Below are positions 1 to 63,770 of a stretch of 64,000 nt of DNA, one piece after another. A program made the translations under genes and the position numbers. Positions within the stretch are counted from its first letter, which is position 1, and every line of letters begins with the position of its first letter. The notes under the pieces are model-generated. The model made no database searches and had not been told where the DNA came from. It saw only the letters and a list, made by a program, of their open reading frames with translations. This DNA comes from Fidelibacterota bacterium. Its GTDB lineage: Bacteria > Fidelibacterota > UBA2242. The stretch is from positions 849 to 64,848 of the forward strand of contig JBAZPZ010000003.1 of assembly GCA_041645495.1 (NCBI GenBank), read 5' to 3'.

Positions 1-503
1 TTCATGTCGGGTAGTCTGGAACATGCTTCAATGATTTTTCCTTCATTGGCTTTGAATTCTTCACGCCATTTTTCATAATAAACATCTAAAGCCCCGTCTT
101 TTGTATGCAGCGCATTTCTCACCTGCGAATCATAGATTAGAACCGGATGTTTGATTTTAATCCAAAGAAACTTTGTCGTAAGCGACAGAAGGTTTTTATT
201 TCCATACTTGACGGATATTCTTCTTTCAATTTCACGTATTTCTTTAACGGGGTCATCCTTAAAGTCGTCTGGTTTTAGAGGATCGATGATGTCCAAAACC
301 GGTTCGTATCGAGCAAGCGCTCTCTTTTCGTCGTATATTGAAGGTAAATTTCTCGCTACTCTATAAAAGCCACCGGCATTCTTTAATGCTTTTAGTTTTT
401 CACTCCTATTTCCATTAGATAATGCCTCACAGTACCCCATGTCATACATGAGCCACTGATTTAGATAAAGTAGCGAGCAATATTCAAAAGTTTTGGTTGC
501 CAC
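1..503 (-). CDS. Partial paralog (C-terminus runs off the window start) of the 207-aa hypothetical protein at 6753-7376; probable GTG start at 503
   Basis: Positions 3-510 align at about 93% nucleotide identity with 6877-7380, with no indels inside the coding part. The reading frame stays open on the minus strand. The ATG of copy B corresponds to GTG here. Not in the ORF track because there is no in-window stop. Confidence 0.5.
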   Translation of the reverse strand, partial: MATKTFEYCSLLYLNQWLMYDMGYCEALSNGNRSEKLKALKNAGGFYRVARNLPSIYDEKRALARYEPVLDIIDPLKPDDFKDDPVKEIREIERRISVKYGNKNLLSLTTKFLWIKIKHPVLIYDSQVRNALHTKDGALDVYYEKWREEFKANEGKIIEACSRLPDM

Positions 504-540
504 ATCTTGCTTCAATTTTTTCTCCTCCGAAATCCCTTAT

Positions 541-630
541 CATAATGCTATGAATTTATTCCCAAACAATTCTTTTATCAAGACACTTTTAACCTTCAGA
601 AGGTTAGAAACCTTCTGAAGGTTTTAACAC
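541..630. repeat. R element copy 1: ~90-bp intergenic repeat with two tandem 15-bp palindromes, AACCTTCAGAAGGTT at 591-605 and AACCTTCTGAAGGTT at 609-623
   Basis: Direct sequence match to 9790-9880 (about 85-90% identity). The two palindromes are mutual reverse complements, forming a perfect 15-bp stem with a 3-nt loop. The element lies in the divergent region between the 207-aa paralog (start 503, minus) and thrA (start 713, plus). Confidence 0.6.
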
Positions 631-712
631 TCTTGGCAGGTTCGGGAAAATATCGTATTTTTCGTCGGATCGATTTTATTGAGCATTTGACACACAGACT
701 GAAAGTTAGAGT

Positions 713-3181
713 ATGAAAGTTCTAAAATTCGGCGGAACCTCAGTAGGCAAGCCGGAAAATCTGAAAACCATTTTTCAGATCGTCGCAAAAGAAATCCAAA
801 GCGGAACCGACGTCATCACGGTCTTTTCGGCGCTCAGCAAAGTCACGGATCAGTTGACGGAAATGAGCCGCTTAGCCGCGAAAAGAGACGTGGCCTATAA
901 AACAGTCTATGACGACCTGCGCAACCGCCATTTCCAGTTCATCGAGAAAGTGATGCCGCCGGTTGAACGGGAATCCGTGATCGCGGAAATCGAATCCATT
1001 CTCTCCGAACTGCAGGACATCGTGCATGGCGTTTACTTGTTGAAGGAATTATCCGGGCAGTCGCTCGACCTGATCCTGAGTTTCGGCGAACGCCTGTCTT
1101 GTACGATCATCGCCGCCTATGGCAAGTCCGCCGGCCATGCGACTCATTACGCGGATGCCCGGCAAATTTTCACGACCAATGACCACTTCGGGGCGGCGCG
1201 GATCATTTCGAATATTACAACTCCCAAAATACAGGCCCTTTTTCAAAATTATACCGGAGTACCTGTCGTAACCGGATTTATTGCGGCGACCGAAGACGGT
1301 GTCACGACGACTCTGGGACGAGGCGGCTCCGACCTGACCGCTTCCCTGATCGGCGCGGCCTTAGATGCCGAAGAAATTCAGATCTGGACGGACGTCAACG
1401 GTTTCATGTCCGCCGATCCGCACAAGGTCAAAGAAGCCTTTTCTCTGCGTGAACTCAGTTACGAAGAAGCAGTTGAACTCAGTCACTTCGGCGCCAAAGT
1501 GCTTTTCCCACCGACTATTCAGCCGGTGATAGATAAAAAGATTCCAGTCCGGATTATGAACACTTTCAATCCGGATTTTCCCGGCACGGTCATCAAGAAA
1601 AATCCTTCTGCCAACGGCGGTTTTATTAAAGGAATCACCTCGATCAGGCATATTTCTCTGCTGACTGTTCAGGGCAGTGGCATGATCGGCGTCAGCGGCA
1701 TTTCGTCCCGCCTGTTCGGCGCGCTCGCCAAAGTCAACGTGAATGTGATCCTGATTTCCCAGGCATCCTCGGAACATTCCATCTGCGTGGCCATTTTGCA
1801 TGATTCCGTCCATAAGGCAAAAACGGCAATCGAAGAGGAATTCTCGATGGAGATCAAAGTCCGCATGGTCGACCCGGTCATCGTGGAAAATGACCTGATC
1901 ATCATCGCCGTGGTCGGTGAACGGATGCGTAAAACCACCGGACTGGCCGGGCGACTCTTCAGTGCTCTCGGCGAAAAAACCATCAATGTCGTGGCTATTG
2001 CACAGGGCTCTTCGGAATTGAACATCTCGATTGTAATCGATCAAAAGGACGAGGATCAGGCACTCAACGCCATCCACAATGCCTTCTTCGCAAAAAAAGT
2101 AAAAGTGAACCTGTTCCTTTTCGGCGTCGGACTGATCGGTTCAGCTCTTATCGAACAGATTAGATCGAATTATATCAATTTGCTGAATAAATATGCCCTA
2201 GATTTGAAAGTCGTCGGGCTGGCCAACAGCCGGAAAATGCTGATCGACAAAGACGGCATCGATTTGAATGACTGGCGAAAATCCCTGAACGATTCCCCGG
2301 TCAAAACCGATATGCAAGTGTTGCTAGCTGAGATAAAGAAACTGAATCTGGATAACAATGTTTTAGTAGATTGTACTGCCAGCGCCGAAATCGTGACGCA
2401 TTATGAACAAGTTTTGACCGGGCGGACCTCCATCGTCACCGCGAATAAAATCGGCAACACCGGTTCGTATTCCCAATATGTCAAATTCCGGGACCTCGCG
2501 AAAAGCAAACACGTCCATTTCCTCTATGAAACCAACGCCGGGGCGGCTCTGCCGATCATCAGCACTCTGCGGGACATGATCAATTCCGGCGACCGGATTA
2601 TCCGGATCGAAGCGATCCTGTCCGGCACAATCAGTTATATACTCAATAATTTCAAGCCGGGGAAAAAGTTCAGCGACATCGTCCGCGAAGCCAAAGATAA
2701 AGGTTTTACCGAACCCGACCCGCGCGATGACCTCAGTGGTCTCGATTTCGCCCGCAAAGTTCTGATCCTCGCCCGGGAGATCGGGAATCCCACTGAACTA
2801 GCCGATATTCAGATCGAACCGATCTTGCCGGAGAATTGCTACAAAGCCCCTTCGATCGAGGCGTTCTTCGAGGAACTTGAAAAATCCAATGCTTACTTCG
2901 ATAAATTGCTACAACAGGCGCACGCCGAAGGCAAAGTCCTACGCTATATCGCGATTTACGAAAACGAAAAAACGTCGATGAAATTAGAAAAAGTGAATTC
3001 CGCCCATCCCTTCTATTCGCTGAGCGGCAGTGACAATATCATTGCCTTTACGACTAATCGTTACGCCGAAAATCCGCTGGTTATCAAAGGAGCGGGCGCC
3101 GGCGCGGAAGTGACGGCCGCGGGCGTCATGGCGGATATTTTCAAGATTGCCAACGCCGTAATGAAGAGTAAGAGTTTCTGA
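713..3181 (+). CDS. thrA: Bifunctional aspartokinase / homoserine dehydrogenase
   Basis: 822 aa. N-terminal aspartokinase (MKVLKFGGTSVG), two ACT regions, and a C-terminal homoserine dehydrogenase domain. thrB follows. Confidence 0.9.
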   Translation: MKVLKFGGTSVGKPENLKTIFQIVAKEIQSGTDVITVFSALSKVTDQLTEMSRLAAKRDVAYKTVYDDLRNRHFQFIEKVMPPVERESVIAEIESILSELQDIVHGVYLLKELSGQSLDLILSFGERLSCTIIAAYGKSAGHATHYADARQIFTTNDHFGAARIISNITTPKIQALFQNYTGVPVVTGFIAATEDGVTTTLGRGGSDLTASLIGAALDAEEIQIWTDVNGFMSADPHKVKEAFSLRELSYEEAVELSHFGAKVLFPPTIQPVIDKKIPVRIMNTFNPDFPGTVIKKNPSANGGFIKGITSIRHISLLTVQGSGMIGVSGISSRLFGALAKVNVNVILISQASSEHSICVAILHDSVHKAKTAIEEEFSMEIKVRMVDPVIVENDLIIIAVVGERMRKTTGLAGRLFSALGEKTINVVAIAQGSSELNISIVIDQKDEDQALNAIHNAFFAKKVKVNLFLFGVGLIGSALIEQIRSNYINLLNKYALDLKVVGLANSRKMLIDKDGIDLNDWRKSLNDSPVKTDMQVLLAEIKKLNLDNNVLVDCTASAEIVTHYEQVLTGRTSIVTANKIGNTGSYSQYVKFRDLAKSKHVHFLYETNAGAALPIISTLRDMINSGDRIIRIEAILSGTISYILNNFKPGKKFSDIVREAKDKGFTEPDPRDDLSGLDFARKVLILAREIGNPTELADIQIEPILPENCYKAPSIEAFFEELEKSNAYFDKLLQQAHAEGKVLRYIAIYENEKTSMKLEKVNSAHPFYSLSGSDNIIAFTTNRYAENPLVIKGAGAGAEVTAAGVMADIFKIANAVMKSKSF

Positions 3182-4119
3182 TGAAGTCCATAACGGTTTT
3201 CGCTCCCGCCACCGTGGCCAATGTCGCCTGCGGTTTCGACGTCTTCGGATTCGCCGTACATGAACCGGGCGACGTCGCTAAGGTCACTCTGCGGGAAACT
3301 CCCGGCGTCGAAATTACCCGCATTACCGGCGACAGCAGACAGTTGCCGAAATCCGCCGAGAAGAATACGGCCGGTTTCGCGGCCATCCGTTATCTCGAAA
3401 CCATCGACTCCAAACAGGGCGTCGAAATCGAATTGCAGAAGAAAATGCCGCTGAATAGCGGCCTGGGTTCGAGCGCTGCCAGCGCGGTTGCCGTCCTTTT
3501 TGCGATCAATGCGCTTTTCGAAAACCGGCTCACGAAACATGAATTGCTCAGTATCGCGATACAGTCGGAGAAATTAGCCTGCGGCGCCGCGCACGCCGAC
3601 AACGTCGCTCCGGCGCTTTTCGGCGGTTTTGTACTTATCCGTGAAAACGATCCGCCGGACATCGTGGAATTGCCGGTTCCGGATAACCTTTACTGTACGA
3701 TCATTCACCCGGAAGTCGAAATTCGCACCGCGGATGCCCGCAATATCCTCACTCCGCAGATTCCCCTGAAGGATGCAGTCAGGCAATGGGCGAACACGGC
3801 GGGATTGGTCGCCGGACTTTTCCGGAAAGACTTTGCGCTCATCGGCCGCTCTTTACACGATCACGTCATCGAACCACAACGGGCTATGCTTATTCCCTAT
3901 TTCTATGAATTGAAACAGGCGGCTTTAGCCAGCGGCGCCCTCGGTTGCAGTATATCCGGTTCGGGACCTTCCGTCTTCGCGCTATCGCAAACGCAAGTCG
4001 TTGCCGCGAAAATCGCCGAGGCCATGCAAACCGTCCTGAATAATCACGGGATCGGCAATCAGATTTACGTCTCTCCCATCAGCACCAAAGGACCGGAAAT
4101 CATCGCTCAAGAGGAATAA
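3181..4119 (+). CDS. thrB: Homoserine kinase
   Basis: 312 aa GHMP kinase with the PLNSGLGSSAASAVA motif. Start overlaps the thrA stop (ATGA). Confidence 0.9.
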   Translation: MKSITVFAPATVANVACGFDVFGFAVHEPGDVAKVTLRETPGVEITRITGDSRQLPKSAEKNTAGFAAIRYLETIDSKQGVEIELQKKMPLNSGLGSSAASAVAVLFAINALFENRLTKHELLSIAIQSEKLACGAAHADNVAPALFGGFVLIRENDPPDIVELPVPDNLYCTIIHPEVEIRTADARNILTPQIPLKDAVRQWANTAGLVAGLFRKDFALIGRSLHDHVIEPQRAMLIPYFYELKQAALASGALGCSISGSGPSVFALSQTQVVAAKIAEAMQTVLNNHGIGNQIYVSPISTKGPEIIAQEE

Positions 4120-4123
4120 AACT

Positions 4124-5440
4124 TTGCGATATTACAGCACTGCCGACCGCACCCATAAAGTTCCCCTGAGAGAGGCCGTTCTGAACGGCATGCCCGCCGA
4201 CGGTGGTCTTTACATGCCCGAATCTCTGCCGGTAATGCCGGATAAATTCTTCCGCGATCTGCCGGAGATGACTTTTCAGTCCTTGTCTTTCGAAGTGGCC
4301 AAAACCCTGATCGGCAATGACGTCCCAGCCGACATCCTGCATAAAATTATAGACGACGCCATCAATTTCGAAACCACGCTGGTAAACATTACGGAAAAGA
4401 TCAAGACCCTCGAACTTTTCCACGGGCCGACCCTCGCTTTTAAAGACGTCGGCGCGCGGTTCATGTCGCGCCTGATGGCCTATTTCGTCCGGGGCAGTGA
4501 TCGTAAACTCAACATTCTGGTCGCGACCTCCGGCGACACCGGCAGCGCCGTCGCCAATGGTTTTTTCCAGATCCCCGGCATCAACGTCATCGTCCTTTAC
4601 CCGGCCGGGAAGATCAGCCTAATCCAGGAAAAGCAAATCGCGACGATGGGCGGGAACGTCATTGCTTTGAAAGTAAAAGGCACGTTCGACGATTGCCAGC
4701 GTTTGGTGAAAGCCGCCTTAGTCGATCCGGATGTTCAAAAAGCCCTGACGGTCAGTTCCGCCAATTCGATCAACATTGCGCGGCTGATTCCGCAAACCTT
4801 TTACTATTTCAATGCCTTCCGGCAGATCCAAGATTTTCACGACAAAAAGATTGCGGTCTGCGTTCCCAGCGGCAACTTCGGTAATCTTACCGCCGGCCTG
4901 ATCGCTAAAAAGATGGGACTGCCGGTTGACCGCTTCATCGCCGCTACCAACATCAACCATATCGTCCCGGATTACCTATCAACCGGGATTTTCCACCCGC
5001 AGGCTTCCATTCAGACCATTTCCAACGCCATGGACGTCGGGAATCCCAGCAATTTTGCCCGCATGCTCGCCCTCTATGACAATTCGTTAGACAACATGCG
5101 CCGGGACATCGACGGTGAATATTTTACCGACGACGAGACCCGCGCCGCGATTGCCGCAGTTTATCGTGAGATTGGCTACATTCTCGATCCGCACGGCGCC
5201 GTCGGTTACCTGGGAATTAAAAACTATCTCGACCGAAATCCGTCAACAGATACCGGTATTTTCCTTGAAACAGCGCACCCGGCGAAGTTCCGGGATGTGG
5301 TGGAACCGATCATCGGAACGACTATCGCGATCCCAGACCGGCTTGCAAAATTCCTTGAACGAAAAGTGTTATCAATAAATATATCCAGCGAGTATGAGGA
5401 ATTCAAAGCCTTCCTGTTGGAAAACAAGATTCTTTATTGA
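4124..5440 (+). CDS. thrC: Threonine synthase
   Basis: 438 aa, PLP enzyme with the FHGPTLAFKDVG lysine motif. Third gene of the thrABC operon. Confidence 0.9.
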   Translation: MRYYSTADRTHKVPLREAVLNGMPADGGLYMPESLPVMPDKFFRDLPEMTFQSLSFEVAKTLIGNDVPADILHKIIDDAINFETTLVNITEKIKTLELFHGPTLAFKDVGARFMSRLMAYFVRGSDRKLNILVATSGDTGSAVANGFFQIPGINVIVLYPAGKISLIQEKQIATMGGNVIALKVKGTFDDCQRLVKAALVDPDVQKALTVSSANSINIARLIPQTFYYFNAFRQIQDFHDKKIAVCVPSGNFGNLTAGLIAKKMGLPVDRFIAATNINHIVPDYLSTGIFHPQASIQTISNAMDVGNPSNFARMLALYDNSLDNMRRDIDGEYFTDDETRAAIAAVYREIGYILDPHGAVGYLGIKNYLDRNPSTDTGIFLETAHPAKFRDVVEPIIGTTIAIPDRLAKFLERKVLSINISSEYEEFKAFLLENKILY

Positions 5441-5462
5441 CCAAACCATCTTCCCGCGTTGA

Positions 5463-5687
5463 CTTACTGAATTGTTATGTGGTGCCGAACCGGAAGTCAT
5501 GACGCTCGCCAAATCTCATGGCAGCGGTGTCCAACTCGGCGCGGAAATCGTCGACAAATGCCGCGCCCAAAACCTGCTGATCAACTGCACGCACCAAACC
5601 GTTCTGCGCCTCATGCCCGCCATCAATGTCACCAAAGAGCAGATCGACCGCGCAGTCGCGATCATCGGCAAGGCGTTGGAAGAATAA
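5463..5687 (+). pseudogene. 3-prime remnant (about 74 codons) of a class-III aminotransferase gene (ArgD / acetylornithine aminotransferase-like)
   Basis: The translation (QLGAEIVDKCRAQNLLINCTHQTVLRLMPAINVTKEQIDRAVAIIGKALEE) matches the extreme C-terminus of ArgD/GabT-type aminotransferases. The frame is closed by TGA at 5460-5462, only 20 nt after the thrC stop, so about 330 N-terminal codons are missing. Confidence 0.6.
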
Positions 5688-5734
5688 AAGTCAACAGAGT
5701 TTCAAAATAGATGAGGATTCTTTTATATTGGATT

Positions 5735-6817
5735 TTACTTTATCTTCGTCAATAGCCAATCTGTCAATCCAAATTCAACTATCATTTTTGCCAGCCGTTT
5801 TGGTAAAATAAGTTCAATGTCTTCGTATTTGGTGTTTTTAAATTCAGCAAGAGTTTTGTCAGGGCTATGAACTACGAAATATAGTTTTCTAAATATACCA
5901 TGTGAAAACTCTTGAGCATATTTTTCAAATTCATCCACAGTTGCTCTGGATTTGACTTGTACCTGATACTTATCCTCTGTTATTGGCTCAACCAATTCCA
6001 TATCGACATATTTCATTACTTCCCCTAAAAGACTGACTCGACGCCAACCAGCATTTCGAAATATCAAATCAACCAAAGTCTCAAAATCTTTCCAGTGTAA
6101 TTGCTCCAATCCCATCGCAACTTCCGTTATCAGTTTTGCTTTATTTCGAGAGATCGATTTGAAAGCATTGCTTGGTTTATCATTTATAAGTCTTCTCAAC
6201 GTTTCAACTTCTGCTATTTCGCAAATTGTCCCTCGAAATCCCTGTACTTTCGCAATATTTCCAGGAATTTGACTAATCAATAAAGGCTTCCCTTTTATAT
6301 CATGATTATGCCATTCCCCCGAAAGCAAACGGTACACTGATATTTCATCCTTAAAGATACCTTTTTTACCAAGACGACACCACCAAAGCTGACATTTATG
6401 GAAAGTTATCCAAATATCGTTTGATGCGGATTGAGTTATTTTTTTTAGGGCATTTATATCCATTGTCGCGACCCCGTCAGTTTTATACTCATGTCTATAT
6501 TTTATTTTGAGTGCGTCCCAATCTCCTCGATTGATTTCTTCGAGCGTCCAATTATTCCACCCAATTCGCGCTTTATTTTCTCTAATGCTAGATGTTTCCC
6601 ATTCTCCTCCTCTACCCAGTTTGATGTAGTAGGCTTTCGTAAATTTTTCCGTTTTCATTTCAGTACCGTCCTTTAAAGATAAGCCTTCTTTTGTCTTTAT
6701 CGCTCGTTTTATATCAGTGGCGTAGCCTTGCAGAATCTGCCGGATGTTATTGTTAAGCACTGTTACCTTTGTTCCAAAGATAAATATCAAAAACTCTTTC
6801 ATGAAACCATGTTTCAT
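5735..6817 (-). CDS. Two-domain protein: unknown N-terminal domain (about 210 aa) fused to a C-terminal Mrr-type PD-(D/E)xK nuclease domain
   Basis: 360 aa. The C-terminal segment WKDFETLVDLIFRNAGW...YVDMELVEP...KYQVQVKS fits the Mrr_cat pattern (FE-LV-L, a D..E block, then a QVK lysine). The N-terminal region (AYYIKLGRGGEWE..ARIGW) was not recognised. The start overlaps the stop of the upstream 207-aa gene by 65 nt, so the two are co-transcribed; the alternative start MKEFLIF at 6802 still overlaps. Confidence 0.55.
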   Translation of the reverse strand: MKHGFMKEFLIFIFGTKVTVLNNNIRQILQGYATDIKRAIKTKEGLSLKDGTEMKTEKFTKAYYIKLGRGGEWETSSIRENKARIGWNNWTLEEINRGDWDALKIKYRHEYKTDGVATMDINALKKITQSASNDIWITFHKCQLWWCRLGKKGIFKDEISVYRLLSGEWHNHDIKGKPLLISQIPGNIAKVQGFRGTICEIAEVETLRRLINDKPSNAFKSISRNKAKLITEVAMGLEQLHWKDFETLVDLIFRNAGWRRVSLLGEVMKYVDMELVEPITEDKYQVQVKSRATVDEFEKYAQEFSHGIFRKLYFVVHSPDKTLAEFKNTKYEDIELILPKRLAKMIVEFGLTDWLLTKIK

Positions 6818-7376
6818 TTGATATCTCCCGAATATATTCTTCTGTTCCGACCTCCTGATTCACCGCATACTTATTCATCTCGGGTAGTCTGGAACATACT
6901 TCAATGATTTTTCCTTCATTGGCTTTGAATTCTTCACGCCATTTTTCATAATAAGCATCTAAAGCCCCGTCTTTTGTATGCAGCGCACTTCTCACCTGTG
7001 AATCATAGATTAGAATCGGATGCTTGATTTTAATCCAAAGAAACTTTGTCGTAAGCGACAGAAGGTTTTTATTTCCATACTTGGCGGATATACTTCTTTC
7101 AATTTCACGTATTTCTTTAACGGGGTCATCCTTAAAGTTGTCTGGTTTTAGAGGGTCGATAATGTCCAAAACCGGTGCGTATCTATCAAGCCCTTTCTTT
7201 TCGTCGTATTCCGAAGGTAAATTTCTCGCTACTCTATAAAAGCCACCGGCATTTTTTAATGCAGTCAGTTTTTCACTCTTGTTGCCATTAGATAATGCCT
7301 GACAGTAACCCATGTCATAGATGAGCCACTGATTTAGATAATAGAGCGAGCAATATTCAAAAGTTTTGATTGCCAT
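6753..7376 (-). CDS. Hypothetical protein (207 aa), first gene of the two-gene module with the Mrr-like nuclease
   Basis: Clean ORF with a Shine-Dalgarno (AAGGAGAGGT) 0-3 nt before the ATG, immediately downstream of the attC1 R-prime core. No transmembrane segment and no recognisable family. A paralog sits at 1-503. Confidence 0.6.
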   Translation of the reverse strand: MAIKTFEYCSLYYLNQWLIYDMGYCQALSNGNKSEKLTALKNAGGFYRVARNLPSEYDEKKGLDRYAPVLDIIDPLKPDNFKDDPVKEIREIERSISAKYGNKNLLSLTTKFLWIKIKHPILIYDSQVRSALHTKDGALDAYYEKWREEFKANEGKIIEVCSRLPEMNKYAVNQEVGTEEYIREISNETWFHERVFDIYLWNKGNSA

Positions 7377-7389
7377 ACCTCTCCTTGAT

Positions 7390-7452
7390 ACCTAACGCAA
7401 CGCCTCTCGGGGCGCGAGGAACGAGCGCTCCTTTTGCAGGCGCTTGTTAGGT
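7390..7452 (-). other. Integron-type attC recombination site (attC1, 63 bp)
   Basis: Read in the cassette (minus) direction: R-double-prime ACCTAAC (fits RYYYAAC and contains the TAA stop of ORF172), L-double-prime AAGCGCC, an imperfect inner palindrome, L-prime GGCGTTGC, and R-prime GTTAGGT (fits GTTRRRY). It is followed by SD + ATG of the next ORF. The complement of R-double-prime equals the TTAGGT found at the 5-prime edge of its own cassette. Confidence 0.6.
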
Positions 7453-7965
7453 GATTTTAAGTTGATAAATCTTGCATCCATACTGAGTGCGGCGAAAAAA
7501 AGCATAAATGGGAGGCAATGCCTTAGGTGTGACAAAGCCACCCTGTGAGAGGTTGATGTTATTGATTTGACTGTGGCGTCCGAATAGGCAAAGGAATGAC
7601 TGTGAATTAGTATACTTTTTCTGGAAAGCGGCTAACTTTTTATAATCAAGATTCACATCAAGCGTATTGATCCGCTTTCTAGGCCATTTAACTTCTAATG
7701 CGAAGTGGTATCGTTCCTTCTTTGCCACGAAATCAATCCTTTTATGGCCAACACTTCCCTCGTTTGGAAGAAAGCCCTTACAAGAAACCTCGCATTTAAC
7801 ATCGTATTTGCGAATCAAGAGTACGCGAAGAATAGACTCATACAATTGGTATTCGGTGAAAGCTATATTCGCGTCGCAAGCAGCAAGATAGCTGATATGC
7901 CCTGCCAAGGCCCGTTGAATGCGAAATAGTGATTCGTATGGTTCGTCGAGTTCACGCTTCCTCAT
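7447..7965 (-). CDS. Hypothetical protein (172 aa), possible PD-(D/E)xK-fold nuclease, alone in its cassette
   Basis: ORF with SD (AAGGAGATTAGATA) + ATG directly after the GTTAGGT core of attC2. The stop codon is embedded in the R-double-prime core of attC1. The segment RIDFVAKKERYHFALEVKW resembles a D..E-x-K nuclease motif. This is a weak inference. Confidence 0.5.
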   Translation of the reverse strand: MRKRELDEPYESLFRIQRALAGHISYLAACDANIAFTEYQLYESILRVLLIRKYDVKCEVSCKGFLPNEGSVGHKRIDFVAKKERYHFALEVKWPRKRINTLDVNLDYKKLAAFQKKYTNSQSFLCLFGRHSQINNINLSQGGFVTPKALPPIYAFFRRTQYGCKIYQLKIT

Positions 7966-7983
7966 TATCTAATCTCCTTAATT

Positions 7984-8041
7984 ACCTAACGCTGCGGCTC
8001 AGCGGCGGCGGAACGCCGTCCGCTGTAGCCGATTGTTGGGG
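7984..8041 (-). other. Integron-type attC recombination site (attC2, 58 bp)
   Basis: Cassette direction: R-double-prime CCCCAAC (8041-8035), inner imperfect palindrome AATCGGCTACAGCGG...CCGCCGCTGAGCCGCAGC, and R-prime GTTAGGT (7990-7984). It lies 9 nt after the HNH gene stop and 18 nt before the ORF172 ATG. Confidence 0.55.
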
Positions 8042-8049
8042 CTTCTCTT

Positions 8050-8772
8050 TCAAAGATTTCGCTCGATGATTTTCTTCACGTAGGCGGGCATTTCCTGCTG
8101 AAGAGCTTCCGTCTTCTTTTTCAATTTGTCATAAACTTCAACTTCAGCACCAGTCCACATGATGTCTAGTCGACGGGCTGAGCGCATGGCAATGTGTGCA
8201 TAATCCTCAGGGTAAGCCCAGTAGCATGAACGACAGATGTTGGAGTCTTTCTGCTCAAGCCAATTTGCACAATGCTCGCAAGACCAGGACTTCGCGCGAT
8301 TTGCCGAACCGCAGAGCAACATGAAGTCTTCTGGCTTCTGCTTTCCCTCGCCCATATCCCCCGCAACCTCAAAAGGGATACGATGGTCAATCTGCAGCTC
8401 ACGTTCGTCGAATGGTTCAAGATAAACAGCGCACCGCGAACCGTGCTTTTCGATTAAGGCTTGTTTCAGTTCCTTTGTGAAAGCCGTGCGCCCGATCAGT
8501 TTTCCGAATCGGGACTTACTTGGATCACCGAAGCGATATGCGGCGATCTTGCGCCCATCTGCGCCTTCCACCCTGTACATCTCAATTGGGATGCCGTTCT
8601 CTTTGACGTCGCGGACGGCACGTGGGGGATGATTGTAGCCGTATTTGTCCTTCAACTCCTGTGTGGTTATGAATCCATGCTTGAGAATGTGGTCAATAAC
8701 AGTCCGAGGACGCTTTGCCGTGACCTTCTTGCACAGCCGTATGAATTCTTTGGGAAGTTGCGGTTTCGTCAT
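8050..8772 (-). CDS. HNH-family restriction endonuclease (type II R-M, R subunit)
   Basis: 240 aa. HNH core LQIDHRIPFEVAGD ... LLCGSANRAKSWSCEHC with flanking Cys/His zinc ligands. The start overlaps the stop of the upstream methyltransferase (ATGA). Confidence 0.75.
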   Translation of the reverse strand: MTKPQLPKEFIRLCKKVTAKRPRTVIDHILKHGFITTQELKDKYGYNHPPRAVRDVKENGIPIEMYRVEGADGRKIAAYRFGDPSKSRFGKLIGRTAFTKELKQALIEKHGSRCAVYLEPFDERELQIDHRIPFEVAGDMGEGKQKPEDFMLLCGSANRAKSWSCEHCANWLEQKDSNICRSCYWAYPEDYAHIAMRSARRLDIMWTGAEVEVYDKLKKKTEALQQEMPAYVKKIIERNL

Positions 8773-9683
8773 GATCTCGTCTCAAAAAGGCACATTTGTT
8801 CGCTTTGCGGTAAGTGGTAGACAGTTTTTGATTCGATGAGTTCATCGGCAAGTGCTGGGGACAGGTAAAGAGATTCAACAGTCGCATCGTCCCTGCCCAG
8901 AAGGGTTGCTTGCGTAGATCGTCCGGCGTTCAACTCCATGTGCGAAAGGTTCAAGTGTTCGGGCAGGCGTACGCCATGAACTTTATTGCCGGTGCGCCCA
9001 TCGTAACTGACAATATATCGGATATGCCTGGCGTTGAGGTGCTCAAGAACTTCAACGAACTCACAAAACTGCACGCTAGCAAGATAACGAGTATCTCTAT
9101 TTCCACAGACGCCTTGATAAGGCGGATCCATATAAACCAAGTCGCCATCGCCTGCTCTCAGCACGGCATCACGGTAATTTGTAGAAGAAAATGATGTCTT
9201 GCCTTTCAGTAAATAGGACGCGCCACAAACCTGTTCGTGCATGGTCGCAGGCGTCGCTCCTCGCCGTCTGTTATCGGGGCTTTGGTTGAACTCGCCATTC
9301 GCGTTATACCGTACTGATGCTTTTACGCATCTGGCTAGAAGGTAGAGGAAGTAGTCTGGCCTTCCGGTAAGATTGAATTCATCCCGTATTTTGCGGTAAT
9401 AGGACTTAGGGTCGGCAAGTTGTTCTTTCCAAAGCGATTCGTACTCCTTGGCCAGTTTATCCGGTGTGTTGACAATAGCCCTCCAAAGGTCCACCAACGG
9501 CTTGTTCAGGTCGTTGATGTGAAATCGCTTGGCACGCCTGTGCGCAGCGGCGGCCAGCGAAATGGCGGCCGACCCAGCAAAAGGCTCATGCAGAGTCTCA
9601 ACACTAGCGGGGAAACATCGCAAGATGTCCCCGGCCAAGTTCCGCTTGCTTCCTTGGTATGGTATAGGATGAGGAACGTTCAT
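8769..9683 (-). CDS. N6-adenine DNA methyltransferase, Dam-like (D12 class)
   Basis: 304 aa. N-terminal PYQGSKR (AdoMet motif I of Dam-type methyltransferases) and catalytic VYMDPPYQG (DPPY motif IV). Paired with the HNH endonuclease. Confidence 0.8.
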   Translation of the reverse strand: MNVPHPIPYQGSKRNLAGDILRCFPASVETLHEPFAGSAAISLAAAAHRRAKRFHINDLNKPLVDLWRAIVNTPDKLAKEYESLWKEQLADPKSYYRKIRDEFNLTGRPDYFLYLLARCVKASVRYNANGEFNQSPDNRRRGATPATMHEQVCGASYLLKGKTSFSSTNYRDAVLRAGDGDLVYMDPPYQGVCGNRDTRYLASVQFCEFVEVLEHLNARHIRYIVSYDGRTGNKVHGVRLPEHLNLSHMELNAGRSTQATLLGRDDATVESLYLSPALADELIESKTVYHLPQSEQMCLFETRS

Positions 9684-9789
9684 ATCAGCACTCTATTCAA
9701 AAACCTGTCTTCTTTTCATGTCCTTCTCGTGCCCCAACATATGTTTATACCGCACACCTGACTCCGTTTTTTTCTCTTTTGAAAGCCCT

Positions 9790-9880
9790 CATCATGACGC
9801 CATCAATTTAGACTTAAACAATTCTTTTGTCAAGATACTCTCAACCTTCAGAAGGTTGAAAACCTTCTGAAGGTTTTACC
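9790..9880. repeat. R element copy 2: same ~90-bp repeat; palindromes at 9843-9857 and 9861-9875
   Basis: Matches 541-630. Lies 2-12 nt after the selB stop (9887) and about 170 nt upstream of the methyltransferase start (9683). Confidence 0.6.
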
Positions 9881-9886
9881 ATTCCT

Positions 9887-11815
9887 TCACTCTTTCAACT
9901 TCCTCACATCTTCTTCCCGCTTCGTGAGTCCGGTTCGGTCGTAATAATTCAGCAAAGGAATCACCCATTTGCGGGAAGTCTGGAGCAGTTCTTTCAGTTC
10001 AGCGACGGTCGCCTCGCCTTTTTTATTGAGATAATCAGCAATCAGTTTGCGCCCCTTTTCGATCGTGTCGGAATGGAACGCGAGATTCCGTTCGGGGATG
10101 ACGATTTTTCCGGCGTCGGTTAAGTAGGCGAACAGCGGCTCGGCTTCGTCTTCCGGCAGGTTTAGTTTTTCCCGGATTTCGGTCAGATCGGGCGGCGCGA
10201 ATCCGCCGGCGATCAGCGCCGACTCGATTTGCAGGATCGATTCCGATTGTTTTCGAGAAAGAACCGGCGAGAAGTCGCCCAGCCGCCATTTATCGCCGGA
10301 AACCACTATTTTATTTTCGTTTTTAAGTTCATTCGTCAGCCAATCCGCCATCCCGAAGCTTCGGGAGAGTTTTACCTCCGCGAGAAGACTCGCTTTCGAT
10401 TGACCGGAGAGAATCGGATTCTTCCGATGGAACTGCAACAGAATTTCGATCAAACGTTCCTTCATTGCCGGGATTTCGGAGACCGAAACGTAACCGGTTT
10501 TGATCAAAACGAGCCTGTTACGGTCGGCAAGTTCCCGCAGAAGCTTCACTGCCGAACTTTCGGAGATCGAAAGTCTCTGCGCAACATCGAGAGGTGAGAA
10601 AAGTGTCCCCGGATGGAGGAAAAAGAGGTTTTCGGCGCAGAAAAGCAGGTCATCGGCGATGAGTTTTCCGATCCGATCCGCTTTTGCGGACTCTTTTTTC
10701 CGGAGCGGTTCGGGGAAAACTTCGAGAACCGTCGCGCCGCCGATCGTCGCCGCCGGAGAATAAGTTCGCAGGATCAGTCGGTCGTGGAATCCGGCCGAAA
10801 TTTCTTCGTCGAAGAGGATTTGCGCGACGCACGACTCGCCCGGCCAGAGTTCGTCTTTGCCGATCGGGCGGATTTTGGCGATGAATTCGCCGGTTCCGAG
10901 GTGAACACGGACGACGGAATTGTATTTCAGCGGCGATGCGGTCGGCAGAAGTCCGATGTGGCAGGTTACCAGCCGCGTCGGGCGGAAATATCCGGGCGTC
11001 GCGAGGAAATAGCCGCGCTTCAGATCGTCCTTATCGACGTTCTGTAGGTTGATTGCGGCGCGATGACCGACGCCAATCCTGTCCGTCTGCTTTCCATGCG
11101 ACTGAATGCCGCGGACTTTCGTCCGAATCTTCAGCGGCGCGATCTCCACTTCATCGCCGATGCGCAATTCTCCCGAAATAATCGAACCTGTGACGACCGT
11201 TCCATAACCTTTGACGATAAAAGCGCGGTCGATCGGCAGACGAAACAGGTCGGTTGTGTTTTCCCGCTCGAACTGTGCCGCTTTTTGTAAGATCGTTTCC
11301 TTTAGTTCGGGAATTCCGGCGCCTGTGACGGCAGAAACGCAAAGAATCGGTTCGTTTTCGAGAAATGTTCCGTAGACAAATTGCCGGACATCTTCCAGAA
11401 TCATCTCCAGCCATACAGAACTGACGAGATCGATCTTGTTGACGACGATCAGTCCCGAGCGGATGCCGAGAAGTTTGAGGATTTCCAGATGTTCGCGGGT
11501 CTGCGGCATGATTCCGTCATCCGCGGCGACGACGAGAAGCGCCAGATCGACGGTATTTGCGCCGGTGACCATGTTCTTGATGAACTTTTCATGCCCGGGA
11601 ACGTCGATGAAGGCGATATTTTCATTCAGAAACGCAAAGCCGATGTCGATGGTCATGCCGCGACGGCGTTCTTCTTCAAGCCGGTCGGGATCGACACCGG
11701 TCAGCGCCTTCAAAAGCGACGATTTGCCGTGATCGATGTGTCCGGCGGTTCCAAAAATGACCGGTCTTTGTCCGCTGACAGGTTCATCGGACAGTTTTTG
11801 GTTTTCTGTTGGCAT
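9887..11815 (-). CDS. selB: Selenocysteine-specific translation elongation factor
   Basis: 642 aa. GTPase motifs (GTAGHIDHGKS, DVPGHEKF, NKID) followed by a long winged-helix C-terminal extension typical of SelB. Adjacent to selA. Confidence 0.85.
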   Translation of the reverse strand: MPTENQKLSDEPVSGQRPVIFGTAGHIDHGKSSLLKALTGVDPDRLEEERRRGMTIDIGFAFLNENIAFIDVPGHEKFIKNMVTGANTVDLALLVVAADDGIMPQTREHLEILKLLGIRSGLIVVNKIDLVSSVWLEMILEDVRQFVYGTFLENEPILCVSAVTGAGIPELKETILQKAAQFERENTTDLFRLPIDRAFIVKGYGTVVTGSIISGELRIGDEVEIAPLKIRTKVRGIQSHGKQTDRIGVGHRAAINLQNVDKDDLKRGYFLATPGYFRPTRLVTCHIGLLPTASPLKYNSVVRVHLGTGEFIAKIRPIGKDELWPGESCVAQILFDEEISAGFHDRLILRTYSPAATIGGATVLEVFPEPLRKKESAKADRIGKLIADDLLFCAENLFFLHPGTLFSPLDVAQRLSISESSAVKLLRELADRNRLVLIKTGYVSVSEIPAMKERLIEILLQFHRKNPILSGQSKASLLAEVKLSRSFGMADWLTNELKNENKIVVSGDKWRLGDFSPVLSRKQSESILQIESALIAGGFAPPDLTEIREKLNLPEDEAEPLFAYLTDAGKIVIPERNLAFHSDTIEKGRKLIADYLNKKGEATVAELKELLQTSRKWVIPLLNYYDRTGLTKREEDVRKLKE

Positions 11816-11826
11816 GAAATGGGAAT

Positions 11827-13260
11827 TTAAAGCGATGCGCCGATGGTTCGGATCGCATCGGAAATCGCCGGAAGATCGGCGGACGGCACGGCTTTCAGAT
11901 CGAGATAAAATTCTTCGGACTTCGTGTATCCGATGATCGGCGGGTGATTCTTCCGGAACAGTTCGGCCAGCCGGACGACAGAGATTTTCTCCGGTGAAAA
12001 GACAATCGCCGCGCTGGGAATCGTCTCCGTCGGCAGTGAGCCGCTTCCCGCCTCAACGACGGTCTCGCGAACCGAGATTCCGAGTTCCTTCACGAGCGTT
12101 ATGGGCAAAGTGCGAACGATCTTTTCCGCTTCGTTGAGCAAGAGATGGCTGTCGCGCGCGAGTAGTTTGTAGGTTTGAATACGTTTCTCCGGCTCCGTCA
12201 ATAAATAACGTTTCAGCGTCGCGCAGAGAAGTGCGAAAGTCGTTTTATCGCACCGGACGACGCGCATCAGCGGGTTTTTCCGGAGAAGGCGAACCGACTC
12301 TTTCTTCCCGACAACGATTCCACACTGCGGCCCGCCGGGAAGTTTATCGCCGCTGAACGTTACCAGATCGACGCCCGCTTCGATAAATTCAGAAACGACG
12401 AGTTCCGCCGGAAGCCCGACTTTCTTGGTGTCTAATAACGCGCCACTGCCGAGGTCGAAGATGACCGGAACGCCGCGCTCATGCGAGAGTCGAACGATTT
12501 TTTCGGGTTCAGGTCGGGTTGAGAATCCCTGAATTTTGTAATTGGATGGATGCGCGAGTATAATTGCGCCGGTTTTTGCGCCGATCACATTCTCATAATC
12601 GCTCAGATGTGTCCGGTTGGTTGTCCCGACTTCGATCATTTTCACGCCGCTTTTTTTCATGATCTCAGGAAGCCGGAACGAACCGCCGATCTCGATCAAT
12701 TCGCCGCGCGAGACAATAACTTCTTTGCGGTTTGCCAGCGAATTCAGCGCCAGAAAGACCGCCGCGGCGTTGTTATTTACAACAGCGGAATATTCCGCGC
12801 CCGTCAGCAACTTCAGGTAATCGTCCGTGAGGTTGAGCCGTTCGCCGCGCTCGCCGGTATTCACGTCGAATTCCAGATTGGAGTATCCCGAAAGTATTTC
12901 AGCCGTTTCCGAAAGGATTTCACTGCCGAACGGCGCGCGTCCCAGACCGGTGTGCAGGACAATTCCGGTCGCATTGATCACTTTTTTCAGCGGCAGAGAC
13001 AGAAGGTCTTCACTTTTCGATCTTATCCGGCGGCAAATCTCTTCGACGGCGCTCTGCCGGTCTTTCAAAGAAATTCGTCTCCGAACGATTTCGGTTCTCA
13101 GCGCTTCTATTTCGGATCGGATCAGTCTTACGAGAATCTCCGGTTTGAATTCAGGCAGTTCGGCGGCAATCAAATCGGCAACTGATTGAACGGATGGCAG
13201 GATTTTCCAGTCGAAAGGCGCTTCGGATTTCGGTTGGGTCATTCGGGCGGTCTCAGTCAT
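11827..13260 (-). CDS. selA: L-seryl-tRNA(Sec) selenium transferase (selenocysteine synthase)
   Basis: 477 aa with the SelA PLP fold (NATGIVLHTGLGRAP, GDKLPGGPQCGIVVG). Located upstream of selB. Confidence 0.85.
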   Translation of the reverse strand: MTETARMTQPKSEAPFDWKILPSVQSVADLIAAELPEFKPEILVRLIRSEIEALRTEIVRRRISLKDRQSAVEEICRRIRSKSEDLLSLPLKKVINATGIVLHTGLGRAPFGSEILSETAEILSGYSNLEFDVNTGERGERLNLTDDYLKLLTGAEYSAVVNNNAAAVFLALNSLANRKEVIVSRGELIEIGGSFRLPEIMKKSGVKMIEVGTTNRTHLSDYENVIGAKTGAIILAHPSNYKIQGFSTRPEPEKIVRLSHERGVPVIFDLGSGALLDTKKVGLPAELVVSEFIEAGVDLVTFSGDKLPGGPQCGIVVGKKESVRLLRKNPLMRVVRCDKTTFALLCATLKRYLLTEPEKRIQTYKLLARDSHLLLNEAEKIVRTLPITLVKELGISVRETVVEAGSGSLPTETIPSAAIVFSPEKISVVRLAELFRKNHPPIIGYTKSEEFYLDLKAVPSADLPAISDAIRTIGASL

Positions 13261-15127
13261 GCAAATGATTGGTCTGATGGTTCATGAACTGCGTTTCGTA
13301 GAAATAACGGTACAGAGAATCCTCTTTTTTCAGCAGTTCTTCGTGCGTGCCGGCCTCGTGAATCTTTCCTTTTTCCAGAACGATGATCTTGTCGGCGTTC
13401 TGGATCGTCGAGAGCCGGTGCGCGATGACCAAAACCGTCCGGTCTTTCATGAGCCGTTCGATAGCGTTCTGAACCTTTTGTTCCGATTCGGAATCGAGCG
13501 AGGAAGTAGCTTCGTCGAGAATGAGGATGGGCGGATTTTTCAGCAAAGCGCGGGCGATCGCGAGACGTTGACGCTCGCCTCCGGAGAGTCGCATGCCTTT
13601 GTCGCCGATCATCGTTTCGAATTTATCCGGGAAAAGGTTGATGAATTCCAACGCATTCGCGGCGTCCGCGGCGGCGGCGACTTTTTTCGGATCGGTATCT
13701 CCGAGTCCGTAAGCGATGTTGTTGAAGATCGAATCATTGAACAGAATTGTCTGCTGGGTGACGATTCCCATCAGCGACCGGAGCGAATCAAAAGTGACGT
13801 CGCGGATGTCGATTCCGTCGATTCGGATGGAACCGCCGACGGGATCGTAGAAGCGCGGCAGAAGATCGACCAGCGTCGATTTCCCGGCGCCGCTATGCCC
13901 GACGATGGCAACGATCTCGCCCTTCCTGATCGTCATATTAACATCGGAAAGCACCTCGTGGGACGTCTGCGGATACATAAAGCGAATGCGGTCGTATCGG
14001 ATTTCCTGATGAAAACCGTCCAATACCAGTGCATTGGGTTTTTCGACGACGTCGGGTTTTTCATCCAGAATCGAAAATATCCGTATAGACGAAGCGATCG
14101 CCTCCTGAATATCCGCGTTGACATTGTTCAGGCTCTTGAGCGGCGTCATCAGCGCAAAAAGCATGATGATAAACCGGACGAAATCCTCCGCTTCGATTCC
14201 ATGTCCCATCAGAACGGCGCTACCGCCAAACCATAGCAAAGAAACGCCGATGGCCACGCTAAAAAACTCGTTGATCGGCGTCGAGACGATCTTCAGTTTC
14301 CGGCGTCTGAAAAGTAATTGAAAATATCTTTCGGTTTCGTGGAAGAAGCGCGCCTTCTCGAATTTTTCCATGCAAAACGCCTTGATGACACGAACTCCGT
14401 GGAGAGTCTCGTCAAGAATCGCCATGATTCCGGCAATCTGCTTGGATGTGCGAATTGACTTACGCCGAATGCTTTGGCCGATCCTGGAAATCGTGATGAA
14501 GGTGAGCGGCAGAATGATAACGGCAAAAAGACTCAGCCGCCACGAGATGATAAAGAGCAGGATCATGAACGAGAGAATGTTGATCGGCTCGACGAGAAGT
14601 TTGTCGAAACTGACTGAAAATGAGTGTTGGACGGTGGAGACGTCGTTCAGCACGATGGACGAGATTTCACCCGCTCGCTTTCGCTGAAAAAATGAGAGCG
14701 AAAGTCGGTGCAAATGTCCGTAGAGTGTGTTCCGCAGGTCGCGTACGAGTTTTAACTGCACATAGCCGATGCATACGTTTTTAATATAAAAGAAGATGTT
14801 TTTGAGTGTAAACATCAAAAGGATCGTCAGACACAGCATCCTCAGGGTTTTTAATGGTTCATCCCGCATGACCAGTTTGTTCGTGATAGCTTTCAATTTG
14901 TCATTGGCGCTGAGTTTGACGGGAAGTGTCGGCTTGACGACGATATTTTCGGGTTTCGCTTGTTGTACGACGGTTGGCGTCTTGGGAAAAAGCACATTGA
15001 CGAACGAAGCGGTCAGCCAGATAGAGGCACTATTAAACAGGACGAATAGGATTGAAGCCAGAAGGCCTGTCGTGAGCGTTTTCCAATATGGTTTGACTAA
15101 CTTCAAAATGCGGAAATAGAGTTTCAT
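13253..15127 (-). CDS. msbA: ABC transporter permease/ATPase, MsbA-like lipid A exporter
   Basis: 624 aa. Six-TM N-terminal domain plus nucleotide-binding domain: Walker A GHSGAGKST, signature LSGGERQRLAIARAL, Walker B ILILDEATSSLD. Confidence 0.8.
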   Translation of the reverse strand: MKLYFRILKLVKPYWKTLTTGLLASILFVLFNSASIWLTASFVNVLFPKTPTVVQQAKPENIVVKPTLPVKLSANDKLKAITNKLVMRDEPLKTLRMLCLTILLMFTLKNIFFYIKNVCIGYVQLKLVRDLRNTLYGHLHRLSLSFFQRKRAGEISSIVLNDVSTVQHSFSVSFDKLLVEPINILSFMILLFIISWRLSLFAVIILPLTFITISRIGQSIRRKSIRTSKQIAGIMAILDETLHGVRVIKAFCMEKFEKARFFHETERYFQLLFRRRKLKIVSTPINEFFSVAIGVSLLWFGGSAVLMGHGIEAEDFVRFIIMLFALMTPLKSLNNVNADIQEAIASSIRIFSILDEKPDVVEKPNALVLDGFHQEIRYDRIRFMYPQTSHEVLSDVNMTIRKGEIVAIVGHSGAGKSTLVDLLPRFYDPVGGSIRIDGIDIRDVTFDSLRSLMGIVTQQTILFNDSIFNNIAYGLGDTDPKKVAAAADAANALEFINLFPDKFETMIGDKGMRLSGGERQRLAIARALLKNPPILILDEATSSLDSESEQKVQNAIERLMKDRTVLVIAHRLSTIQNADKIIVLEKGKIHEAGTHEELLKKEDSLYRYFYETQFMNHQTNHLHD

Positions 15128-15128
15128 T

Positions 15129-15755
15129 TTATGCGCACCTTTGGGCTATTTCGTCGGCGCTCACCGCGCCCTGACGAAGAATCGAAAATCTGTCTGTAAA
15201 AATCTTGACGACCGTCGAAGGAATCCGGCTTGCGGAATCCGAAGACTTCAAAACGATCGGCACCGAGTCACCGAAATACCGGACAACCTCTTCGATGTTT
15301 TCCGCAGGCTTTTTGCCGGACGGATTGGCGCTGGTCGTCGTAATCGGATTCGGAAAACGGCGCAATATTTTGTTCAATAGTCCCGCGTTGATGACACGGA
15401 GACCGATAAATCCATCGTCCACGAATTGTTCGGAAAAATTCCGGTCGCTCTTCGGTAAAACAAGCGTCACACGTCCGGGCAACAACGAACAGACCGCGTT
15501 TCGCTGGTAGTCGTTCAGGTTCGGAAAATCTTTCAGTAATCGTTCCACATCCGAATATAAGACACTTATCGCTTTTGGGGAAGACCTGCCTTTCAGCCGG
15601 ACAAGATTCCCGACGGCGGACGAATTAAAAACATCCACGCCCAGTCCGTAGATCGTGTCCGTCGGATAAGCGATAATCTGCCCGCAGGAGAGCACGGTTA
15701 AAATCGCTTCGGTCTGCGACGCGGAAATCGTATCCAATGAAATGATCTCAGGCAT
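15129..15755 (-). CDS. tsaC: L-threonylcarbamoyladenylate synthase (YrdC/TsaC family)
   Basis: 208 aa with the AYPTDTIYGLGVD motif of YrdC/Sua5. Confidence 0.8.
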   Translation of the reverse strand: MPEIISLDTISASQTEAILTVLSCGQIIAYPTDTIYGLGVDVFNSSAVGNLVRLKGRSSPKAISVLYSDVERLLKDFPNLNDYQRNAVCSLLPGRVTLVLPKSDRNFSEQFVDDGFIGLRVINAGLLNKILRRFPNPITTTSANPSGKKPAENIEEVVRYFGDSVPIVLKSSDSASRIPSTVVKIFTDRFSILRQGAVSADEIAQRCA

Positions 15756-63708: not shown

Positions 63709-63770
63709 CGGAGCGAAGCGGAGATTCGCCGTGGTGAACCGGAGCGAAGCGGAGATTCGCCTTGGTGAAT
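63709..63770. repeat. Two tandem 31-bp direct repeats, CGGAGCGAAGCGGAGATTCGCC(G/T)TGGTGAA(C/T)
   Basis: Units at 63709-63739 and 63740-63770, immediately 3-prime of the GIY-YIG gene stop. Each unit contains a small GCGAA...TTCGC stem. Confidence 0.5.

Follow-up and report, generated by a model that had tools for sequence, protein, structure and literature searches.

A paired palindrome repeated beside thrA and selB in a Candidatus Neomarinimicrobiota genome is probably a RAYT-associated REPIN

In the window, as we call the whole 64,000-nt stretch of a Candidatus Neomarinimicrobiota MAG that was analysed, one pair of short palindromes occurs twice in 64 kb, both times beside defence-like genes. 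What kind of element is it? An earlier note on this DNA had offered several readings: one hairpin or two dyad-symmetric sites, an attI-like or regulatory site tied to two defence loci, direct repeats open to recombination, or a small mobile repeat. Comparison with other genomes leads us to think it quite probable that the 33-nt core is a REPIN of a RAYT-associated family, and that the repeated unit of the window (R) consists of such a REPIN and about 90 nt of duplicated promoter-like leader. The option of a small mobile repeat forming a hairpin was thus essentially right.

Structure and setting of the repeat

As first described, two 15-mers 3 nt apart are found in two places. The pattern AACCTTCAGAAGGTT-NNN-AACCTTCTGAAGGTT occupies 591-623 (15-mers at 591-605 and 609-623) and 9843-9875 (9843-9857 and 9861-9875); with up to two mismatches allowed, the 64 kb contain four matches to the 15-mer, against 0.07 expected from shuffles. 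AACCTTCTGAAGGTT is the reverse complement of AACCTTCAGAAGGTT, so that the pair gives a perfect 15-bp stem with a 3-nt loop, 33 nt in total. As DNA this core folds at -15.3 kcal/mol (z about -7), and as RNA, in 70-nt contexts, at -22 to -28 kcal/mol (z = -4 to -6).

The context of the palindromes is indeed repeated, over a longer stretch than the roughly 90 bp originally given: R is a direct repeat of 132 nt (501-632 against 9753-9884) in which 105 of 132 positions are identical (80%). All 30 stem positions agree between the copies, the loop being AGA in copy 1 and GAA in copy 2, whereas outside the core only 74 of 99 positions match (24/29 in a promoter-like block, 37/52 in the leader), and the longest identical run is 19 nt. 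Neutral decay following a duplication would not leave the stems intact between flanks that are about 25% diverged; constraint, gene conversion or a local function is needed, and the alignment of the two copies suggests constraint or gene conversion. The features of the region are as follows.

1-503, minus strand: 5' part of a 207-aa paralogue (P0001), which extends past the left edge of the window
501-632, minus strand: R copy 1 (hairpin, then promoter-like site, then leader), up to the GTG at which the 207-aa paralogue starts
553-581, minus strand: sigma-70-like match TTGATA-17-TAAATT, directed toward the 207-aa paralogue (consensus match only)
591-623, no strand assigned: putative REPIN core, copy 1; inverted 15-nt REP arms, A-centred then T-centred, loop AGA
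713-5440, plus strand: thrA, thrB and thrC, the operon between the R copies (Pfam; colinear with loci L188 and L189)
5488-5685, plus strand: 3'-end fragment of argD (acetylornithine aminotransferase), the far border of a variable island
5735-7965, minus strand: three operon genes of unassigned function (172, 207 and 360 aa); the 360-aa product has a weak Mrr_cat match and its gene ends at 5735
8050-8772, minus strand: Type II restriction enzyme (Pfam; PADLOC REase_II, 201.6 bits)
8769-9683, minus strand: Dam-like D12 methyltransferase (Pfam; PADLOC MTase_II, 285 bits)
9753-9884, minus strand: R copy 2 (132 nt), starting 2 nt past the selB stop; about 14 nt beyond it the methyltransferase module segment begins
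9805-9833, minus strand: sigma-70-like match TTGACA-17-TAAATT, directed toward the restriction-modification (R-M) operon (consensus match only)
9843-9875, no strand assigned: putative REPIN core, copy 2; arms as in copy 1, loop GAA, 11 nt past the selB stop
9887-11815, minus strand: selB (Pfam, NCBI name), whose transcript would end with the copy-2 hairpin

The reported sites were confirmed: copy 1 lies between the minus-strand 207-aa paralogue and thrA, which are divergent, and copy 2 between the selB stop and the R-M genes. On the minus strand the order is selB, R copy 2, methyltransferase, restriction enzyme and the genes for the 172-, 207- and 360-aa proteins; the hairpin does not recur between these operon genes. 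In both copies the promoter-like match lies on the minus strand directly past the hairpin and follows the sigma-70 consensus, which may not be this phylum's own. A possible short ORF in the leader of R, inspected by eye, showed no conservation beyond that of the DNA itself.

The paralogue at the left edge and the gene at 6753-7376 encode proteins that are 88% identical, and their DNA is 95-97% identical over 1-300. No Pfam or PADLOC family matches this 207-aa protein (6753-7376 and 1-503; P0001-P0120). Its 185 homologues are spread over many phyla (Desulfobaccales, Limnobacter, Thiotrichales, Cloacimonetes and others) and adjoin genes of mobile or defence type, such as a KAP NTPase (L130/L131) or a serine recombinase with ParA (L122).

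One hairpin in many genomes

How far the core is confined to these two sites was judged by scanning a single genome for each species; the motif was allowed any centre base and 1-8 nt of spacer (more than 120 stretches). The core family has at least 134 copies in at least 54 assemblies, that is, species-level genomes, three of which have at least 19, 10 and 9. The assemblies are labelled Kapaibacteria, Ignavibacteria, Neomarinimicrobiota, Fidelibacterota, Saprospiraceae and other Bacteroidota, as well as Chloroherpeton, Chloroflexi and Anaerolineales, Zixibacteria and one Desulfobulbaceae; some labels are doubtful, as bins named "Hyphomicrobiales" carry type IX secretion sorting domains. Copies stand in unrelated intergenic and coding contexts, an outcome that the earlier note had itself named as refuting its reading, and the specificity for the two loci that the earlier note had seen in the window is not borne out when they are counted across genomes. 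Only 14 solo 15-mers were seen, most of them doublets that have decayed. Viral contigs gave no match to the core, and a full-text search of one library of papers for the 15-mers and the peptides they encode found no paper.

The flanks of the core are unrelated between genomes, although certain genomes embed it in longer repeats of their own. Such embedding, together with the MITE-like size of R and its presence in two copies, would be expected if the whole 132 nt were a MITE-like unit moved by a DDE transposase. Against this, neither terminal inverted repeats at the ends of R nor a target-site duplication were found, one end of R coincides with the start codon of a gene, and the R flank is absent from all the other loci fetched and from viral contigs (0 matches), so that we consider a MITE extremely unlikely. 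In E. coli, the REP clusters known as BIMEs likewise combine REP hairpins with other conserved intergenic sequence, and they affect mRNA stability and transcription read-through; R differs in that its additional 90 nt occur only in its two copies and bear no similarity to the REPIN spacers of relatives.

We then asked whether the family maintains one hairpin or two adjacent dyads. In 123 of the 134 copies listed, the centre base of one arm is the complement of that of the other (C..G in 104, G..C in 18, A..T in 1; Fisher p = 7e-15), and the spacer sequence is free. In imperfect neighbouring pairs, taken from all loci fetched, 50 arm positions have changed on both arms and are still complementary, against two that have changed on both arms with loss of complementarity; a further 42 have changed on one arm only. 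The variants AACCTTCGGAAGTAT / ATACTTCCGAAGGTT and AGCCTTGCGAAGGTT ... AACCTTCGCAAGGCT have lost the symmetry of the single 15-mer and kept the pairing between arms. As pairing is kept and the dyad symmetry of a single arm is not, the conserved object is the inverted pair, one long hairpin. The bases directly before and after the element are complementary in 12 of the 134 listed copies, where base frequencies predict about 38, which indicates that the ends of the hairpin are sharply defined.

These data decide between the two structures proposed at the outset, in favour of the hairpin and against the dimer-of-dimers operator. If the dyads were a double operator, a dimer-of-dimers regulator, for example one resembling a C protein, would control both defence-like loci from them. 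The layout in the window is what such control would use, as in both copies adjacent dyad sites stand just upstream of a promoter-like site facing defence genes and the stems are perfectly conserved between diverged flanks; two adjacent palindromic sites upstream of an R-M operon are also the arrangement of C-box operators. The variants just described do not behave as single-arm sites, however, and the core is spread over at least 54 genomes, in unrelated and even coding contexts and in genomes without any R-M system. The operon contains no C gene or other small HTH controller (a weak HTH_39 match belongs to the restriction enzyme), and the R-M module is found elsewhere without R. We therefore regard the operator as very unlikely.

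The placement of the hairpin relative to genes is also informative. Among the 134 listed copies, 40 are intergenic between tandem genes, 24 between convergent and 6 between divergent genes, and 21 lie at locus edges; the intergenic copies cluster 7-15 nt past stop codons. Copy 2, 11 nt past the selB stop, has the typical placement and copy 1 belongs to the rare divergent class. REPs are likewise known mostly from between unidirectional and convergent ORFs, less than 20 bp from 3' ends (Di Nocera et al., PMC3733652).

A position so close to stop codons, in selB and in many members of the family, and the predicted RNA stability given above would both suit a plain terminator of selB transcription, immobile and with no link to a transposase. 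Yet an intrinsic (Rho-independent) terminator carries a T/U tract after its stem and neither copy of R does: read along the selB strand, the sequence after the stem is GAGAGUAU. The terminator scan reported no terminator-like site at either copy, and a T-rich tail accompanies only 47 of the 134 listed members of the family. A terminator does not require a fixed sequence, whereas these arms are identical across phyla; copy 1, between divergent genes, has nothing to terminate; and RAYT genes are flanked by the same hairpin. A plain terminator is in our judgement highly improbable. An Rfam search at a permissive threshold, covering 1-12000 of the window, gave no match.

About one third of the listed copies (43/134) lie inside genes, in long ORFs. 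In 37 of 42 copies in long ORFs the element is read in the frame that encodes (K/Q/E)PSEG-x-x-PSEG(S/Y/F), against an expectation of one third (p = 3e-13). Because the element is palindromic, the same peptide results from either orientation. Intragenic copies occur in L004, L005, L009, L016, L019, L025, L074, L099, L106, L119 and other loci. About half of the in-frame copies fall within type IX secretion sorting domains, in the first loop; other hosts are ATPase domains of histidine kinases, a methyltransferase-like protein, the RAYT itself and an ABC-F ATPase, in which the copy has the same position in two Chloroflexi-labelled bins. The copies in the window are non-coding, since their loops create stop codons in the PSEG frame.

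Intragenic REPs and the RPEs of Rickettsia are known precedents (PMC3733652). Like the in-frame copies seen here, they are palindromic, lie in frame within functional genes and add a short peptide to a surface loop; RPEs are 100-150 nt long and restricted to Rickettsia, whereas the present core is 33 nt and encodes PSEG-x-x-PSEG in both orientations. The REPIN family described here appears unusually tolerant of in-frame insertion, in one reading frame.

RAYT genes beside the hairpins

A REPIN family should have a transposase, and one accompanies the core in several genomes. In a Kapaibacterium locus (L006), a 204-aa ORF (286-900) scores 25.3 bits against Pfam Y1_Tnp (cut-off 23) and 56.5 bits against NCBIfam REP_Tyr_transpos (cut-off 80); the element stands just upstream of this ORF, at its 3' end and once inside it. 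A second RAYT, at 3069-3629 of L095, is 41% identical to the first and has a variant hairpin on one side (3018-3050) and a canonical copy on the other (3655-3688). The L095 gene is without the internal insertion, so that the two genes can be compared cleanly as an occupied and an unoccupied site. An in-frame element inside its own RAYT, right after the HUH motif, is seen in L006 (485-517) and also in L189 (2526-2594), from the Marinimicrobia relatives described below.

With the L006 and L095 RAYTs as queries, 49 homologous loci were fetched from metagenomes. The closest three of the 49 (55-58% identity) have variants of the element on both sides; many of the more distant homologues have hairpins of their own, often AAACC...GGTTT. 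In all, RAYTs flanked by hairpins of the core family were found in L006, L095, L135/L136, L137, L188 and L189. Members of this clade score 56-78 bits against NCBIfam REP_Tyr_transpos, under the curated cut-off of 80. A tblastn search of the window with five RAYTs detected no RAYT or remnant; its matches were at chance level or came from the core where it encodes PSEG.

A RAYT gene flanked by its cognate REPs is the defining arrangement of these systems, and insertions of REPs inside the transposase gene have been reported for subclass 2.4 (PMC6006769). The family agrees with REP/REPIN-RAYT systems (TnpA_REP, class 2 Y1 HUH) in having a short palindromic unit whose inverted pair forms a hairpin, with 33 nt falling in the 20-40 nt range; in its many dispersed copies in other genomes, mostly just past genes and rarely between divergent ones; and in a cognate RAYT flanked, even interrupted, by the same hairpins. 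It differs in several respects. No classic GTAG or CGTC tag is conserved in the 12 nt flanking each side of the core, although RAYT subclasses whose REPs also lack this tag exist (PMC6006769), and each of the 15-nt arms is close to a palindrome on its own. Arms of identical sequence are found under several phylum labels, whereas the REPIN families described so far are mostly lineage-specific; some one third of copies are inside genes; and the RAYTs score just under the NCBIfam cut-off. The analysis documents a REP/REPIN family and a RAYT clade in Neomarinimicrobiota, Ignavibacteria/Kapaibacteria, Bacteroidota and Chloroflexi-labelled genomes, groups that REPIN studies hardly cover.

Relatives of the thr and selB regions and the origin of the two copies

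RAYTs of this clade are also encoded in relatives of the window's thr region. In L188 and L189, thrA is 82-84% identical to that of the window at the protein level, and RAYTs of 75 and 73.7 bits (REP_Tyr_transpos), 39-45% identical to the L095 enzyme, are flanked by A/T-centred REPINs such as AACCTTCAGAAGGTC - 39 nt - GACCTTCTGAAGGTT; one of these RAYTs lies immediately upstream of thrA. A metagenome scan for A/T-centred doublets with a 1-8 nt spacer gave no matches; spacers in the relatives are 37-39 nt, so that the doublets there are not matched by this pattern.

Positions 610-5406 of the window are colinear with L189 7905-12694. Homology begins in the right arm of copy 1 (610 corresponds to L189 7905), and the right arm is separated from the start codon of thrA by 89 nt in the window, against 82 nt in L189. 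As the homology upstream of thrA starts in this arm, copy 1 stands at a REPIN site common to L189, whose hairpin there is likewise A/T-centred, and on this alignment it was probably inherited. We also considered whether the left flank of R derives from the REPIN spacers of the relatives and rejected it, the alignment scores lying within those of shuffled controls.

A second, different RAYT lies just downstream of thrC on the minus strand of both relatives (L189 12925-13491, L188 12951-13517); it scores 101 bits against REP_Tyr_transpos, above the cut-off, and its flanks (L188 12740-12950 and 13520-13800) contain other palindromes, for example GCGCCAATATTATTGGCGC and CTGCGTTAACAGTGTTAACGCA. At the matching position the window has the defence island instead.

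The argD fragment of the window is 81-87% identical to L188 3246-3701 and L189 1612-2060, and is matched also by L184 15702-15850. In the window it lies downstream of thrC, whereas in the relatives argD is upstream of thrABC, which shows that the thr region has been rearranged in the window genome.

On the other side, the selB relatives L184 and L186 (85-87% protein identity) have the upstream gene order in common with the window, and their homology to it ends at the selB stop, at window position 9887 for L186 and 9889 for L184. Past selB, neither contains the hairpin or R. L186 carries an EcoRV-like enzyme and a D12 methylase there (11903-13880), and L184 an N6_N4 methylase and a 265-aa partner (11924-15864). 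Three related genomes thus have three different R-M systems past selB, which marks the site as a hotspot of R-M turnover; as the relatives gain such systems without R, R is not needed there. The region that varies in the window extends from the selB stop at 9887 to about 5685, and its far border is the argD 3' fragment in both the window and L184. A 12-mer, TCTTGACAAAAG (window 9823-9834, including the -35-like hexamer of R), recurs at about 11945-11956 in the selB/R-M intergenic region of L186, which is otherwise unrelated to R.

The two gene modules next to R also occur without it. In L123-L126, which carry homologues of the R-M module, similarity to the window is confined to the module and the 55 nt before the methyltransferase ATG (to about 9738), and R is absent upstream. 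It is likewise absent upstream of the homologues of the 207-aa gene in L122 and L129-L134, which have other upstream sequences; a conserved ribosome-binding stretch precedes these genes and is present also at the second copy of the gene in the window (7376). Neither the proposed link of an attI-like or regulatory site with the two defence loci nor the narrower one with R-M genes past selB agrees with these loci, since both modules stand elsewhere without R and the close relatives hold other R-M systems at the selB site.

The same comparison bears on a role of R as a recombination site, either for attI-like capture of cassettes or as direct repeats driving duplication, deletion or rearrangement of the 9.2 kb that hold thr and the island. 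At each copy, R ends at a junction with an imported module, and the two modules differ; the post-selB hotspot is occupied by three different R-M systems in three relatives; and thrABC beside the argD 3' fragment, in an order unlike that of the relatives, is evidence of a past rearrangement. However, no gene from 1 to 15127 contains a recombinase domain, an IntI-type integrase included, and, unlike the imperfect attC hairpins of integrons, this hairpin is perfect and missing between the operon genes. Relatives take up R-M systems at the site without R. The copies are direct repeats, as had been noted, but recombination between them is a weak proposition: a longest identity of 19 nt within 80% makes a poor substrate for homologous recombination, and a deletion between the copies would lose thrABC. 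We judge a recombination site improbable.

How, then, did a REPIN come to stand at both places? Both window copies combine an A/T centre, which is rare (1 of the 134 listed elsewhere), with a 3-nt spacer and 132 nt of shared flank, from which we infer a local duplication rather than two independent insertions. The thrA-side hairpin is common to L189 and the selB-side one is missing in L184 and L186, which points to copy 2 as probably the derived one, as far as the alignments indicate. Turnover of the island in L184 and L186 could also have removed a selB-side copy. After its duplication R would have come to adjoin two imported gene modules of different kinds: copy 1 meets the 207-aa paralogue at its GTG start, and copy 2 lies 14 nt from the R-M module boundary.

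REP hairpins form in single-stranded DNA, where RAYT binds and cuts them and so spreads and maintains them; once transcribed they give stable RNA stem-loops, and REPs lying no more than about 15 nt past a stop codon are reported to lower translation of the upstream gene. By analogy, the two inverted 15-nt REP units of the window would pair into a single 15-bp hairpin that, as single-stranded DNA, would be the substrate of a RAYT (a Y1 HUH enzyme) such as the presumed cognate one that is encoded, between hairpins of this kind, in related genomes. Past selB, the hairpin would stabilise and protect the selB transcript or end it, and it may limit read-through into the R-M operon, shielding the downstream promoter-like site as an insulator. 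Copy 1, upstream of thrA, would mainly be a passenger. R is on this account an ordinary genomic repeat and no dedicated switch for defence genes; as the palindromes are neither a defence-specific operator nor an integron-like site, they should not be used for defining a regulon or a cassette system.

A more far-reaching proposal joins two claims: that R is a portable promoter/insulator module set before new defence cassettes by recombination at the hairpin, and that the family is a single REPIN lineage across phyla. Taken together we find these improbable. If the first were true, REPINs would help to build and rearrange the post-selB defence hotspot and the thr neighbourhood; if the second were true, the symmetric PSEG-x-x-PSEG sequence would let a REPIN colonise protein-coding genes.

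Two further repeats were noticed elsewhere in the window. At 52594-53633, 29-nt terminal inverted repeats (97% complementary) enclose about 1 kb with a 280-aa ORF (52768-53610) that matches no Pfam family; the structure resembles an insertion sequence of unrecognised type. At 63709-63769 there are two units of a tandem 30-31 nt repeat, CGGAGCGAAGCGGAGATTCGCC(G/T)TGGTGAA, and similar strings occur in the intergenic region past selB of L184 (GGAGCGAAGCG) and in L101 (GAGCGAAGCGAAG).
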